A DNA stretch of 7,594 nucleotides from Naegleria gruberi (lineage: Eukaryota), in NCBI GenBank assembly GCA_000004985.1, contig GG739126.1, one strand, 5' to 3'. Positions 1 to 7,594 of the stretch are shown here, piece by piece; positions within the stretch are counted from its first letter, which is position 1; each line of letters starts with the position of its first letter. A model generated the notes under the pieces. It had not been told where the DNA came from. It made no database searches and saw only the letters and a program-made list of their open reading frames with translations. The position numbers and the translations under genes are program-made.

Positions 1-868
1 ATTGCCATCATACCAATAATTGATTTTATACTATTAAACTGGTATTATACACTATAATTGATATATATATGAATATATAATTGAAAGATTTGGTTTTAGA
101 CATTTATTAATGACGTGGGTTGTTCACTAAGGTAGTAACTTTGTCATACGATAACTATCTAAGATGATATTGAAATCATTCCAAAATTGATTCGATGAGA
201 GTATTTGATGATTATAACATGATAGTATTGAATTGGTGTTGATTATTACCATTCATGACATGTAAGAATGTTAACTTTTTGTCAATAAGTACAGTAGCTT
301 GACAGATATTCCAATTATATAGATATTGATTATATCACTCAGAAACGTTATCAATATCAGTTATAAGAGTAGTGGTATGATATTCAATCTTGTTGTACAT
401 CTTGATATTGACTTGTCATATTATCATGAGTTGTTAGTGACATGGTTAAATGACATGAATACTGAATGATGTCCAAATGATTTGAAATTGATAGAAACCT
501 CATTATATGATGTTAATAACATATTGTATCAATTTGGTATTGAATCTCATTGTCCTTAGGGTACTTCCCTATTGAGGTACCTTAATTGACCATCTCTATA
601 TTTAAATTGAGATATGATATTTATTTCAATTGTATCATTTTGTAAATGATGGATAAGTAGCCAAGTTGTGTATGGTGTAGAATTGGTATAACATTATTTT
701 CAACATTTACAAGTGCCATTTCTCATCATCTGTTGGACCAAAACAAAATTTTTTGTTATAGTGGTGGTTTTTTTACTAACCTACATGTACAATATCGGAA
801 CAAGGAGATGCTCTATAGTTGTGCAGAATCATTCCACCAACAATAAGTTTTTGAAATATTCTTTTCTT
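1..868. repeat. Left copy of a large direct repeat matching 6727-7594. It is truncated by the window start, so the true 5' boundary is unknown.
   Basis: Read against each other, 1-120 and 6727-6846 differ at about 5 positions, and 121-240 and 6847-6966 differ at 4. Further along there are small indels, for example gattatatcactc versus gatatatatcactc, and gtatcattttgtaaatgatggataag versus gtatcatcattttgtaaatgataag. Overall identity is about 94-96%. Both copies share an (AT)5 run, at 61-70 and 6787-6796. Confidence 0.9.
785..860. repeat. Degenerate partial monomer (tail-like) at the proximal edge of the satellite array
   Basis: tgtacaatat at 795-804 matches tgtacaatac at the monomer A tail (1145-1154). 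acaacaataagtttttgaaatatt at 835-860 resembles the monomer tails, acaacaaattaaca at 1157-1170 and acaacaaattaaaatttttatatt at 1815-1840. An extra segment of about 40 bp sits between the two matches. Confidence 0.4.
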
Positions 869-1174
869 AGTGAACTTTGCTTGCATCATAATTATTAAGG
901 AATTTTGTCAAGTAGATGGAAAGTGTTCTAAAATTGCTCTAGATGGTAACATTCCGTTACAGTATACTTAAATTCTAAGAAATGGTTGAGATCAGTCGAT
1001 TTTTCACAACTGTAATCTTTAAAACAGTGGTTGTCATCCAACCCGATGTAACAACTACTATTAAATGTTTCAAATGAGCTTGGAGTTGCTCAAACCCGTT
1101 GCTTCTTCTCAAAAGAGTGACTTATTCAACCTTTTGGTGGGATTGTACAATACTGTTCAACAAATTAACATTGT
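861..1174 (+). repeat. Satellite monomer A (314 bp)
   Basis: A aligns to monomer C along its whole length. The segment 998-1110 matches 1658-1770 with about 3-4 mismatches in 113 bp. Confidence 0.85.
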
Positions 1175-1523
1175 CTTTTCTTAGTGAACTTTTCCTTCAT
1201 CCCAATTATTAAGGAATTTTTACAAGGGGATGGAAAATGTTCAAAACTGGCTATAGATGGTATAATTCCATTGAACTATACTCATATTCTTAATAATGAT
1301 TGAGATTGGTCGATTTTTCACAACTGTTATCTTTGAAACAGTGATTTCATCCAACCACTCTTTAATAACAACTCCATGGACTGGCTCAAACCCGTTGTAA
1401 TATTAAATTAAACTTTCTCAAATGAGCTTGGTGTGGCTCAAACCCGGTGTGCTTACGTAAAATTCAATCGGAATACAATTTTAACTGGTATTCTGGCAAA
1501 GAGCCAACATTTTCACAATTAAA
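1175..1523 (+). repeat. Satellite monomer B (349 bp), a divergent variant carrying an internal duplication of about 51 bp
   Basis: B shares the monomer head and the conserved core at 1300-1345 with A and C, but has diverged 3' of the core. The motif gctcaaacccg occurs twice, at 1384-1394 and 1435-1445, whereas A and C each have one copy. This accounts for the roughly 35 bp of extra length. Confidence 0.8.
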
Positions 1524-1838
1524 CTTTCTTACTGAACTTTGAATATTTCACATAGTAAGGAATTTTTTCAAGTAGATGGAAAATGTTCCAAAATCGATAG
1601 AAATGGTACCAGTCCTTTACAGTACACTTAAATTCTCAAAAATGATTGAGATTGGTCGATTTTTCACAACTGTAATCTTTAAAACAGTGGTTGTTATCCA
1701 ACCCGATGTACCAACTACTATTAAATGTTTCAAATGAGCTTGGAGTTGCTCAAACCCGTTGCTTCTTTTCAAAAAAGAGACTTATCCAACCTTTTGAATG
1801 AGACTGTATTATACTATACAACAAATTAAAATTTTTAT
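1524..1838 (+). repeat. Satellite monomer C (about 315 bp), A-type
   Basis: C is near-identical to A in its 3' two-thirds. Its head is ctttcttactgaactttgaatatttcacatagtaagg, compared with A's cttttcttagtgaactttgcttgcatcataattattaagg. Confidence 0.85.
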
Positions 1839-1875
1839 ATTCTTACTGAACTTTTCTTACTTCACAATTATTAAG
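1839..1875 (+). repeat. Satellite monomer D, only its first 37 bp or so, cut off by the N gap. Its head looks B-like.
   Basis: tcttactgaacttttcttacttcacaattattaag resembles the head of B, tcttagtgaacttttccttcatcccaattattaagg. Confidence 0.7.
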
Positions 1876-4800
1876 NNNNNNNNNNNNNNNNNNNNNNNNN
1901 NNNNNNNNNNNNNNNNNNNNNNNNNNNNNNNNNNNNNNNNNNNNNNNNNNNNNNNNNNNNNNNNNNNNNNNNNNNNNNNNNNNNNNNNNNNNNNNNNNNN
2001 NNNNNNNNNNNNNNNNNNNNNNNNNNNNNNNNNNNNNNNNNNNNNNNNNNNNNNNNNNNNNNNNNNNNNNNNNNNNNNNNNNNNNNNNNNNNNNNNNNNN
2101 NNNNNNNNNNNNNNNNNNNNNNNNNNNNNNNNNNNNNNNNNNNNNNNNNNNNNNNNNNNNNNNNNNNNNNNNNNNNNNNNNNNNNNNNNNNNNNNNNNNN
2201 NNNNNNNNNNNNNNNNNNNNNNNNNNNNNNNNNNNNNNNNNNNNNNNNNNNNNNNNNNNNNNNNNNNNNNNNNNNNNNNNNNNNNNNNNNNNNNNNNNNN
2301 NNNNNNNNNNNNNNNNNNNNNNNNNNNNNNNNNNNNNNNNNNNNNNNNNNNNNNNNNNNNNNNNNNNNNNNNNNNNNNNNNNNNNNNNNNNNNNNNNNNN
2401 NNNNNNNNNNNNNNNNNNNNNNNNNNNNNNNNNNNNNNNNNNNNNNNNNNNNNNNNNNNNNNNNNNNNNNNNNNNNNNNNNNNNNNNNNNNNNNNNNNNN
2501 NNNNNNNNNNNNNNNNNNNNNNNNNNNNNNNNNNNNNNNNNNNNNNNNNNNNNNNNNNNNNNNNNNNNNNNNNNNNNNNNNNNNNNNNNNNNNNNNNNNN
2601 NNNNNNNNNNNNNNNNNNNNNNNNNNNNNNNNNNNNNNNNNNNNNNNNNNNNNNNNNNNNNNNNNNNNNNNNNNNNNNNNNNNNNNNNNNNNNNNNNNNN
2701 NNNNNNNNNNNNNNNNNNNNNNNNNNNNNNNNNNNNNNNNNNNNNNNNNNNNNNNNNNNNNNNNNNNNNNNNNNNNNNNNNNNNNNNNNNNNNNNNNNNN
2801 NNNNNNNNNNNNNNNNNNNNNNNNNNNNNNNNNNNNNNNNNNNNNNNNNNNNNNNNNNNNNNNNNNNNNNNNNNNNNNNNNNNNNNNNNNNNNNNNNNNN
2901 NNNNNNNNNNNNNNNNNNNNNNNNNNNNNNNNNNNNNNNNNNNNNNNNNNNNNNNNNNNNNNNNNNNNNNNNNNNNNNNNNNNNNNNNNNNNNNNNNNNN
3001 NNNNNNNNNNNNNNNNNNNNNNNNNNNNNNNNNNNNNNNNNNNNNNNNNNNNNNNNNNNNNNNNNNNNNNNNNNNNNNNNNNNNNNNNNNNNNNNNNNNN
3101 NNNNNNNNNNNNNNNNNNNNNNNNNNNNNNNNNNNNNNNNNNNNNNNNNNNNNNNNNNNNNNNNNNNNNNNNNNNNNNNNNNNNNNNNNNNNNNNNNNNN
3201 NNNNNNNNNNNNNNNNNNNNNNNNNNNNNNNNNNNNNNNNNNNNNNNNNNNNNNNNNNNNNNNNNNNNNNNNNNNNNNNNNNNNNNNNNNNNNNNNNNNN
3301 NNNNNNNNNNNNNNNNNNNNNNNNNNNNNNNNNNNNNNNNNNNNNNNNNNNNNNNNNNNNNNNNNNNNNNNNNNNNNNNNNNNNNNNNNNNNNNNNNNNN
3401 NNNNNNNNNNNNNNNNNNNNNNNNNNNNNNNNNNNNNNNNNNNNNNNNNNNNNNNNNNNNNNNNNNNNNNNNNNNNNNNNNNNNNNNNNNNNNNNNNNNN
3501 NNNNNNNNNNNNNNNNNNNNNNNNNNNNNNNNNNNNNNNNNNNNNNNNNNNNNNNNNNNNNNNNNNNNNNNNNNNNNNNNNNNNNNNNNNNNNNNNNNNN
3601 NNNNNNNNNNNNNNNNNNNNNNNNNNNNNNNNNNNNNNNNNNNNNNNNNNNNNNNNNNNNNNNNNNNNNNNNNNNNNNNNNNNNNNNNNNNNNNNNNNNN
3701 NNNNNNNNNNNNNNNNNNNNNNNNNNNNNNNNNNNNNNNNNNNNNNNNNNNNNNNNNNNNNNNNNNNNNNNNNNNNNNNNNNNNNNNNNNNNNNNNNNNN
3801 NNNNNNNNNNNNNNNNNNNNNNNNNNNNNNNNNNNNNNNNNNNNNNNNNNNNNNNNNNNNNNNNNNNNNNNNNNNNNNNNNNNNNNNNNNNNNNNNNNNN
3901 NNNNNNNNNNNNNNNNNNNNNNNNNNNNNNNNNNNNNNNNNNNNNNNNNNNNNNNNNNNNNNNNNNNNNNNNNNNNNNNNNNNNNNNNNNNNNNNNNNNN
4001 NNNNNNNNNNNNNNNNNNNNNNNNNNNNNNNNNNNNNNNNNNNNNNNNNNNNNNNNNNNNNNNNNNNNNNNNNNNNNNNNNNNNNNNNNNNNNNNNNNNN
4101 NNNNNNNNNNNNNNNNNNNNNNNNNNNNNNNNNNNNNNNNNNNNNNNNNNNNNNNNNNNNNNNNNNNNNNNNNNNNNNNNNNNNNNNNNNNNNNNNNNNN
4201 NNNNNNNNNNNNNNNNNNNNNNNNNNNNNNNNNNNNNNNNNNNNNNNNNNNNNNNNNNNNNNNNNNNNNNNNNNNNNNNNNNNNNNNNNNNNNNNNNNNN
4301 NNNNNNNNNNNNNNNNNNNNNNNNNNNNNNNNNNNNNNNNNNNNNNNNNNNNNNNNNNNNNNNNNNNNNNNNNNNNNNNNNNNNNNNNNNNNNNNNNNNN
4401 NNNNNNNNNNNNNNNNNNNNNNNNNNNNNNNNNNNNNNNNNNNNNNNNNNNNNNNNNNNNNNNNNNNNNNNNNNNNNNNNNNNNNNNNNNNNNNNNNNNN
4501 NNNNNNNNNNNNNNNNNNNNNNNNNNNNNNNNNNNNNNNNNNNNNNNNNNNNNNNNNNNNNNNNNNNNNNNNNNNNNNNNNNNNNNNNNNNNNNNNNNNN
4601 NNNNNNNNNNNNNNNNNNNNNNNNNNNNNNNNNNNNNNNNNNNNNNNNNNNNNNNNNNNNNNNNNNNNNNNNNNNNNNNNNNNNNNNNNNNNNNNNNNNN
4701 NNNNNNNNNNNNNNNNNNNNNNNNNNNNNNNNNNNNNNNNNNNNNNNNNNNNNNNNNNNNNNNNNNNNNNNNNNNNNNNNNNNNNNNNNNNNNNNNNNNN

Positions 4801-6188
4801 NNNNNNNNNNNNNNNNNNNNNNNNNNNNNNNNNNNNNNNNNNNNNNNNNNNNNNNNNNNNNNNNNNNNNNNNNNNNNNNNNNNNNNNNNNNNNNNNNNNN
4901 NNNNNNNNNNNNNNNNNNNNNNNNNNNNNNNNNNNNNNNNNNNNNNNNNNNNNNNNNNNNNNNNNNNNNNNNNNNNNNNNNNNNNNNNNNNNNNNNNNNN
5001 NNNNNNNNNNNNNNNNNNNNNNNNNNNNNNNNNNNNNNNNNNNNNNNNNNNNNNNNNNNNNNNNNNNNNNNNNNNNNNNNNNNNNNNNNNNNNNNNNNNN
5101 NNNNNNNNNNNNNNNNNNNNNNNNNNNNNNNNNNNNNNNNNNNNNNNNNNNNNNNNNNNNNNNNNNNNNNNNNNNNNNNNNNNNNNNNNNNNNNNNNNNN
5201 NNNNNNNNNNNNNNNNNNNNNNNNNNNNNNNNNNNNNNNNNNNNNNNNNNNNNNNNNNNNNNNNNNNNNNNNNNNNNNNNNNNNNNNNNNNNNNNNNNNN
5301 NNNNNNNNNNNNNNNNNNNNNNNNNNNNNNNNNNNNNNNNNNNNNNNNNNNNNNNNNNNNNNNNNNNNNNNNNNNNNNNNNNNNNNNNNNNNNNNNNNNN
5401 NNNNNNNNNNNNNNNNNNNNNNNNNNNNNNNNNNNNNNNNNNNNNNNNNNNNNNNNNNNNNNNNNNNNNNNNNNNNNNNNNNNNNNNNNNNNNNNNNNNN
5501 NNNNNNNNNNNNNNNNNNNNNNNNNNNNNNNNNNNNNNNNNNNNNNNNNNNNNNNNNNNNNNNNNNNNNNNNNNNNNNNNNNNNNNNNNNNNNNNNNNNN
5601 NNNNNNNNNNNNNNNNNNNNNNNNNNNNNNNNNNNNNNNNNNNNNNNNNNNNNNNNNNNNNNNNNNNNNNNNNNNNNNNNNNNNNNNNNNNNNNNNNNNN
5701 NNNNNNNNNNNNNNNNNNNNNNNNNNNNNNNNNNNNNNNNNNNNNNNNNNNNNNNNNNNNNNNNNNNNNNNNNNNNNNNNNNNNNNNNNNNNNNNNNNNN
5801 NNNNNNNNNNNNNNNNNNNNNNNNNNNNNNNNNNNNNNNNNNNNNNNNNNNNNNNNNNNNNNNNNNNNNNNNNNNNNNNNNNNNNNNNNNNNNNNNNNNN
5901 NNNNNNNNNNNNNNNNNNNNNNNNNNNNNNNNNNNNNNNNNNNNNNNNNNNNNNNNNNNNNNNNNNNNNNNNNNNNNNNNNNNNNNNNNNNNNNNNNNNN
6001 NNNNNNNNNNNNNNNNNNNNNNNNNNNNNNNNNNNNNNNNNNNNNNNNNNNNNNNNNNNNNNNNNNNNNNNNNNNNNNNNNNNNNNNNNNNNNNNNNNNN
6101 NNNNNNNNNNNNNNNNNNNNNNNNNNNNNNNNNNNNNNNNNNNNNNNNNNNNNNNNNNNNNNNNNNNNNNNNNNNNNNNNNNNNNNNN
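1876..6188. other. Run of 4313 N: an assembly gap or masked sequence whose content is unknown
   Basis: The run of n characters is uninterrupted. It starts inside a satellite monomer. Confidence 0.99.
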
Positions 6189-6726
6189 TTGATTTAAGAT
6201 TTTGAAATTGTTTATTGTTGATACGAATCAGAAGCTTCTTATTGTGACAACACTTGATAGAAGAATGGGAAAGTGGTTGCATTAATTCAACATATTGAAA
6301 GTGAACAAGGTTCTCATCTCAAGATTTGGAACTCTTCTTCATGAAGAGGAGGTTATTGGGTGGTGACTAGAGAGAAACATTTCCTTGTAGCTTTTCTACA
6401 AGTAAATGATTAATTGACCAAGATGTTGACCTATAATATGGAAACACAATAAAATTCAATAATACTGATAAATACAGTAGTGAATATGAATGGTAATCAT
6501 AAATCACTGAAAAAATCATGATTGGATCCATTTTGAGACTTTTGGAAGTCAACTTGGATGGCAATAGGGGAGCTTTTGATGTGGTTAACACTTTTAAAGG
6601 GATATGAATATTTTATTGGATAATATATGTCATCGCTGTACTTTATCAATAAATATTGAATATCATGATGTTATAATCTATATTTATAATTTGGGAAATG
6701 TTGCAATGTCAATGTTTATTTGAAAT
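6189..6726. other. AT-rich, apparently non-coding segment with no match elsewhere in the window. It lies between the gap and the right copy of the large repeat.
   Basis: No similarity to the satellite monomer or to 1-868 is visible beyond short AT-rich words. The longest ORF is a 74-aa low-complexity frame on the minus strand. Confidence 0.5.
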
Positions 6727-7594
6727 ATTGCCATCATACCAATAATTGATTTTATACTATAAAAATGGTGTTATACACTATAATTGATATATATATGAAT
6801 ATATAATTGAAATATTTGGTTTTAGACATTTATTAATGACGTGGGTTGTTCACTAAGGTAGTAATTTTGTCATATGATAACTATCTAAGATGATATTGAA
6901 ATCATTCCAAAATTGATTCGATGAGAGTATTTGATGATTATAACATGATAATATTGAATTGGTATTGATTCTTACCATTCATGACATGTAAGAATGTTAC
7001 CTTTTTGTCAATTGGGACAGTAGCTTGACAGATATTCCAATTATATAGATATTGATATATATCACTCAAATACGTTATGAATATCTATTATAAGAGTATT
7101 TGTATGATATTCTATCTTGTTGTACATCTTGATATTGACTTGTCATATTATCATGAGTTGTTAGTGACATGGTTGAATGACATGAATACTGAATGATGTC
7201 CAAATGATTTGAAATTGATAGAAACCTCATTATATGATGTTAATAACATATTGTATCAATTTGGTATTGAATCTCATTGTCCTTAGGGTACTTTCCTATT
7301 GAGGAACCTTAATTGACCATCTCTATATTTAAATTGAGATAAGATATTTATTTCAATTGTATCATCATTTTGTAAATGATAAGTAGTCAAGTTGTGTATG
7401 GTGTAGAATTGGGATAACATTATTTTCAACATTTACAAGTGCCATTTCTCATCATCTGTTGGACCAAAACAAAATTTTTTGTTATAGTGGTGGTTTTTTT
7501 ACTAATATCCACTTGTACAATATCGGAACAAGGAGATGCTCTATAGTTGTGCAGAATCATTCCACCAACAATAAGTTTTTGAAATATTCTTTTC
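6727..7594. repeat. Right copy of the large direct repeat (matches 1-868). It is truncated by the window end, where it is entering the same junction into the satellite array that lies at 851-866 in the left copy.
   Basis: The offset is 6726 at the start and 6728 at the end. The final bases, ttgaaatattcttttc, correspond to 851-866, the first bases of satellite monomer A. Confidence 0.9.

Follow-up and report, generated by a model that had tools for sequence, protein, structure and literature searches.

What kind of repeat lies at this contig break, and how much of the adjoining gap does it fill? The window—the whole 7,594-nt stretch analyzed here—comprises a sequenced block at 1–1875, a run of 4,313 N at 1876–6188 (no strand assigned) that is either a sized assembly gap or a masked stretch, and a second sequenced block at 6189–7594. 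A head-to-tail array is visible for 1,015 bp before the N-run, and its 3′ end falls inside the run. The initial annotation took this array for a satellite with A/B/A/B higher-order organization. We find a real but ordinary tandem repeat: The annotated outline is right, the identities were overstated, and the inferences about higher-order structure and size are not established. Our preferred reading, to which we give a probability of about 0.6, is a short-to-medium, old, degenerate, noncoding tandem repeat of ∼315 bp at a contig end, through which the assembler was unable to extend.

The window is 27–32% G+C and depleted in CpG (observed/expected 0.34), with TG (1.40) and CA (1.36) in excess. 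CpG depletion with a matching TG/CA excess is characteristic of methylated eukaryotic genomes, and the array lies in what appears to be a draft eukaryotic genome, CpG-depleted and presumably methylated. In a six-frame scan of the window, all open frames were at most 81 aa and none had a Pfam match above cut-off. An Rfam search with E up to 10 returned chance-level matches alone, all outside the array. ARAGORN found no tRNA in the window, which leaves a tRNA or SINE source for the motif GGCTCAAACCCG unsupported. So large a share of noncoding sequence speaks against a source among prokaryotes or viruses. The longest open frame of the array is 54 aa, and the array has no Pfam, Rfam, tRNA, or predicted-protein homolog; on these grounds we class it as noncoding. 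No function is demonstrable for it.

The tandem array and its units

The array comprises 3.1 head-to-tail copies, which makes it satellite-like DNA under a broad definition (a unit of at least 100 bp present in two or more copies, with similarity beyond chance). Its units, all on the plus strand, are A (861–1174, 314 bp), B (1175–1523, 349 bp), C (1524–1838, 315 bp, A-like), and D (1839–1875), a 37-bp stub truncated by the N-run; these lengths, and the entry into a fourth unit before the gap, are as first annotated. A core 19-mer, GTCGATTTTTCACAACTGT, occurs at 995, 1309, and 1655, with spacings of 314 and 346 bp, and repeat finding recovers three in-register copies at the same spacings. Self-BLAST aligns 863–1213 with 1525–1875 (A/C) at 85.6% over 353 bp (E = 9e-114) and 860–1356 with 1174–1703 (A/B) at 71.7% over 537 bp (E = 9e-76), values that exclude chance similarity. 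The array is 68% A+T, with a monomer of ∼315 bp and units of ∼315–350 bp, and a half-monomer subperiodicity (∼157 bp) is absent from it. Its onset lies at ∼850–861; the 200 bp of flank that precede it contain nothing resembling monomer tails.

Tandem Repeats Finder, run because a tandem-repeat search had been suggested as a check, reports no array with default and two laxer settings (maximum period 2000). The miss probably stems from few copies, many or large indels, unequal spacing, and the presence of only 1.5 copies of a 660-bp period. We analyzed the array by pairwise and multiple alignments in its place.

Identities between units are lower than first described. A and C are 87.1% identical overall (K2P 0.14), the 5′ half being at 83.8% and the 3′ half at 90.4%, where ∼90% overall and ∼97% in the 3′ halves had been annotated. 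Identity of ∼96% is confined to a central block of ∼160 bp (alignment columns 140–300; ∼987–1113 vs. 1647–1777), which is significantly better conserved than the 5′ part (Fisher P = 5e-5) and could reflect constraint instead of conversion. Unit B has indeed diverged from both: MAFFT alignment gives 72% for A–B and 69% for B–C, or 83–85% at alignable positions alone. K2P distances among the array monomers range from 0.14 to 0.19. In the first 40 nt, A–B identity (87%) exceeds A–C identity (73%), and the stub D matches the starts of A, B, and C at 82, 82, and 81%.

The extra length of B is a 46-bp insertion that bears a second copy of a 17-nt motif, TGGCTCAAACCCGTTGT, at 1382–1398 (plus strand). 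This copy duplicates 1434–1450 (16 of 17 positions identical, z = 9.4, a score reached by 0 of 500 shuffles), and A and C each hold a single copy. BLAST pairs both 1377–1397 and 1418–1449 with 1730–1761. The annotated lack of spacers stands insofar as the units are contiguous, but the last 74 bp of B (1450–1523) are unalignable, their similarity to the A and C tails being undetectable (z = 0.2–0.3). The sole stretch conserved across all three units is a 35-nt core, GTCGATTTTTCACAACTGTAATCTTTAAAACAGTG, at 995–1029 (plus strand), which recurs with 2 mismatches at 1309–1343 and identically at 1655–1689. A 5-bp ACTGT/ACAGT hairpin within this core does not exceed shuffled sequence in stability (z −1.4 to +0.3).

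Higher-order periodicity and extent of the array

The repeat unit had been described as an A/B dimer of ∼660 bp, which the data do not establish. Such a higher-order repeat would be recognized by two complete periods and a B-like D; the window contains 1.5 periods, a single comparison (A–C, 87%) spans one period, and D is equidistant from the other units. Units of true higher-order repeats are usually at least 95% identical to one another. Like classical higher-order satellites (primate alpha satellite; Tribolium Tcast1a/1b), the array suggests an alternation of two types, with A–C above A–B, but it differs from them in its 87% identity one period apart, in spanning fewer than two full periods, and in a fourth stub that is off-pattern. 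The closer similarity of A to C than to B would fit duplication of an ancestral A+B pair. The array appears old and drifting, probably with a dimer-duplication step in its history; a higher-order satellite is not demonstrated. The copies have drifted by 13% (A–C) and ∼17–30% (against B), with only the central block at 96%, which argues against an actively homogenized higher-order repeat.

The array had also been sized at ∼5.3 kb, or ∼16 monomers. The arithmetic is right (5,328 bp at about 330 bp each), but the figure is an upper bound that presumes a true N-run size and a gap filled entirely with satellite. Immediately right of the gap, 100 bp of sequence (6189–6288) align locally to the array no better than shuffled controls do, and BLAST of the whole adjoining block, X (6189–6726), against the array gives no match anywhere. 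The array therefore ends somewhere within the gap. Between 0 and about 13 further monomers would fit there, the maximum needing a true gap size and complete filling. In a surveyed oyster assembly, 56% of arrays with 100–500-bp monomers contain 2–3 monomers and 16% contain at least 5 (PMC7492417).

That the array caused the gap, as proposed at the outset, is plausible, as the contig breaks off 37 bp into unit D. The other copy of the left flank likewise stops after 6 nt of a monomer (CTTTTC, 7589–7594), exactly at the window end. The block ends at 1875 and 7594 fit an assembler failing at the repeat, which would make the array the probable cause of the gap.

We consider it doubtful that the window shows the edge of a long centromeric or heterochromatic satellite, built of ∼660-bp A/B dimers and filling most of the 4.3-kb gap with the ∼16 monomers first estimated. 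Such a satellite would account for the excess of A–C identity over A–B and B–C (87% vs. 69–72% by MAFFT and 83–85% at alignable positions), for a contig that ends within the array and a second array that apparently starts at 7589, and for a monomer size and AT-richness typical of satellites. Yet the window shows no more than 1.5 dimers, D is equally distant from all three full units, A–B exceeds A–C at the 5′ end, the sequence at the right edge of the gap is nonsatellite, and 87% is low for actively homogenized higher-order copies. The monomer is also unmatched in metagenome, viral, GTDB, phage, plasmid, and predicted-protein collections, which says little, as few eukaryotes are represented there.

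In those searches, the core 19-mer had one match among metagenome contigs (L001, 48% GC, 21 bp shared) and two among GTDB genomes (L002, 60% GC, 19–24 bp; L003, longest 20 bp), all treated as chance, and 0 among viral contigs. Positions 1–1875 had no match in the phage and plasmid collections. A profile of three minus-strand satellite open frames gave 0 matches among 5.8 billion predicted proteins, and exact look-up of two flank open reading frames also gave 0. Strings of the window sequence sought in paper full texts returned chance 12-mer matches in coronavirus papers and nothing else, and two satellitome papers, on oyster and Tribolium, yielded no sequence match in their supplements. The sequence collections searched hold little eukaryotic DNA, so these negatives show only that the window does not originate from them.

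The repeated flank across the gap

The flank that adjoins the array is itself repeated beyond the gap. Block Y1 (1–866, plus strand), whose last 6 nt (861–866) are the start of monomer A, and block Y2 (6727–7594, plus strand), which closes on the same 6 nt, align at 96.7% identity (K2P 0.033) and differ by 28 mismatches and by 5 indel events totaling 12 gap positions. They are offset by 6,726 bp, their alignment reaches both window ends exactly, and the flank/array junction is the same in both. Y1 contains no open reading frame above 68 aa and no Pfam, Rfam, or tRNA match. Block X (plus strand), between the gap and Y2, is nonsatellite and includes an 81-aa open frame without a Pfam match. As Y and its junction recur 6,726 bp downstream, the array is part of a larger repeated or duplicated segment. 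Its monomers are much older than this macroduplication, given a K2P of 0.14 for A–C against 0.033 for Y1/Y2. Three readings remain for the macro-repeat: a real tandem or segmental duplication of X–Y–array, two copies of a mobile element, or a false heterotype duplication.

An assembly artifact is a serious possibility, which we entertain tentatively. Two haplotypes of one X–Y–array locus may have been assembled as separate contigs and placed one after the other in a scaffold, with a sized gap between them; the array would then be real and confined to a single locus, and both the "period" and the gap content would be meaningless. The 96.7%-identical copies, with their small indels, flank the gap on one scaffold, an arrangement listed as a hallmark of false heterotype duplication (PMC9516828); the likeness is limited to the macro-repeat, and the 315-bp array sits in one contiguous block. 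Each copy runs precisely to one end of the window, and the contig-like blocks break at the array. A divergence of 3.3% is within the allelic range of highly polymorphic invertebrates, but 3.3% with 5 indel events is high for alleles of most species, and a real tandem or segmental duplication would look identical. Highly improbable is an LTR retrotransposon with Y1 and Y2 as its LTRs, the array in an untranslated internal region, and the coding part inside the N-run. Direct repeats of 866 bp and 96.7% identity do lie at both ends of the 7.6-kb window, and tandem repeats are known from the untranslated regions of LTR elements. The repeat, however, begins ATTGCC and ends CTTTTC, without TG...CA termini; positions 867–890 (TTAGTGAACTTTGC...) carry no TGG-type primer-binding site; and 6700–6726 (TTGCAATGTCAATGTTTATTTGAAAT) is not a polypurine tract. 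These three failures disfavor an LTR retrotransposon, and the supposed LTR ends in 6 nt that already belong to the array, being the start of its monomer.

A mobile element of another kind is unlikely in our estimate. The array would be the internal tandem module of a MITE or nonautonomous Helentron/Helitron, with Y as left arm and X possibly as right arm, or Y would be an ∼850-bp insertion beside the array. The Y/array junction, seen twice at 96.7% identity, would then represent two element copies. An exact 11-mer, TTTGAAATATT, occurs three times in the window (plus strand): at 850–860, where the right end of Y1 adjoins the array; at the equivalent 7578–7588; and at 6719–6729, straddling the X/Y boundary. 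The last two bracket Y and could be the target-site duplication of an ∼850-bp insertion between X and the array; pairs of random 30-bp windows drawn from X+Y2 have an exact 11-mer in common at a frequency of ∼1.1e-3, a post hoc estimate (P ∼ 1e-3). Y itself, however, lacks inverted termini, a poly-A tail, and any protein remnant. Terminal inverted repeats were not found, inverted BLAST matches are weak, and the sole inverted pair in 1–1875 consists of 19-nt arms (74–92 and 303–321) with 84% complementarity. The known copies number just two and lie side by side instead of being dispersed. The architecture itself is well documented among tandem-repeat Helentrons and MITEs (Cg_HINE, PMC7492417; DTC84, PMC3879986), which share a flank–array–flank layout and a junction conserved in more than one copy. 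These elements differ in having 50–100 bp of conserved flank against 866 bp here, and a microsatellite, subterminal inverted repeat, and 3′ palindrome module, of which we found none. The HINE left flank places a subterminal inverted repeat, a complementary inverted repeat, and a microsatellite before the array (PMC7492417), whereas no microsatellite lies between flank and array here (near 700–860). The monomer, too, is about twice the usual 140–180 bp (PMC7492417). We think it similarly improbable that X–Y–array, at ∼6.7 kb, is a genuine repeated module, be it a macrosatellite nesting the 315–350-bp satellite or an undescribed mobile element that makes an 11-bp target-site duplication and carries and spreads long-monomer arrays.

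Origin and significance of the array

Unequal exchange and replication slippage are established mechanisms of tandem repetition. Under the preferred reading of an old, degenerate tandem repeat, an ancestral unit of ∼315 bp would have been duplicated in tandem by one of them. One copy, of B type, would have gained the 46-bp insertion that duplicates the 17-bp motif, and its 74-bp tail would have been replaced or have strongly diverged. A later duplication of about an A+B pair (∼660 bp) may then have yielded C and D, in this putative order of events. The copies would next have drifted to their present 13% (A–C) and ∼17–30% (against B), while the central block stayed 96% alike or was rehomogenized. 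An assembler stalling in such an array would leave a contig that ends 37 bp into the fourth unit. With three monomers visible, several duplication histories fit, of which this is one.

Short dispersed satellite-like arrays provide a point of comparison. Crassostrea gigas carries 14,591 arrays of 100–500-bp monomers (PMC7492417). Like these and the euchromatic repeats of Tribolium castaneum (PMC4675708), the array is head-to-tail, noncoding, AT-rich, and composed of few copies with divergent neighbors, and it has a fixed junction to a repeated flank. It differs in monomer length, 314–349 bp here against a dominant 160–180 bp there (∼2×).

The biological weight of the array is small: It is one more AT-rich tandem repeat, with no function indicated. 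For assembly quality, the array probably explains the contig break, and near-identical 866-bp blocks on both sides of a sized gap are a warning of possible false duplication, which makes the gap length and the "6.7-kb period" unfit for inference without reads. If X–Y–array is a genuine repeated module, the window would capture a transposon-to-satellite transition; and should the flank together with the array turn out to be dispersed as a module, this would add a case to the known link between transposable elements and satellite DNA.

Macro-repeat copies at the window limits

The two copies of the macro-repeat, block Y, are 96.7% identical and fill both ends of the window, with Y1 (1-866) starting at base 1 and Y2 (6727-7594) ending at the last base, 7594. 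This placement means that the window is either an entire small scaffold, with contigs breaking at repeat edges, or a segment cut on the Y1/Y2 pair. Between the copies sits the N-run (1876-6188), an arrangement listed among the hallmarks of false haplotype duplication.

An exact 11-mer, TTTGAAATATT, flanks the 866-bp block and occurs at 850-860, 6719-6729, and 7578-7588; one copy spans the boundary between block X, the non-satellite sequence right of the gap, and Y2, and another adjoins the start of the tandem array. The empirical chance probability is ~1e-3, a post hoc estimate. These copies could represent a target-site duplication from an insertion of ~850 bp or else junction microhomology. 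Both macro-repeat copies also carry, at 53-85 and 6779-6815, a 12-bp tandem repeat of approximately three units (consensus TATAATTGAATA).

Local duplication in monomer B and a palindrome beside the gap

The 17-nt motif TGGCTCAAACCCG(T/G)TGT is present twice in monomer B (1382-1398 and 1434-1450, 52 bp apart) vs. once each in monomers A and C; the extra length of monomer B is partly due to this local duplication. To the right of the gap, at a distance of 42 bp, lies a perfect 10-bp palindrome, AGAAGCTTCT (6230-6239), which contains a HindIII site. It is probably without meaning, because rough arithmetic gives a chance expectation of ~1 such palindrome in the 1.4-kb block right of the gap.

Dinucleotide composition

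Across the non-N sequence of the window, CpG is strongly depleted (observed/expected 0.34), TG (1.40) and CA (1.36) are in excess, and the GC dinucleotide stands at 0.48. CpG depletion combined with TG/CA excess is characteristic of eukaryotic genomes with DNA methylation. Depletion is weaker in the array (13 CpG observed vs. 26 expected) than in its flanks (~0.2-0.3), and the TCGA within the 35-nt conserved core (995-1029, 1309-1343, and 1655-1689) is retained in all three monomers.
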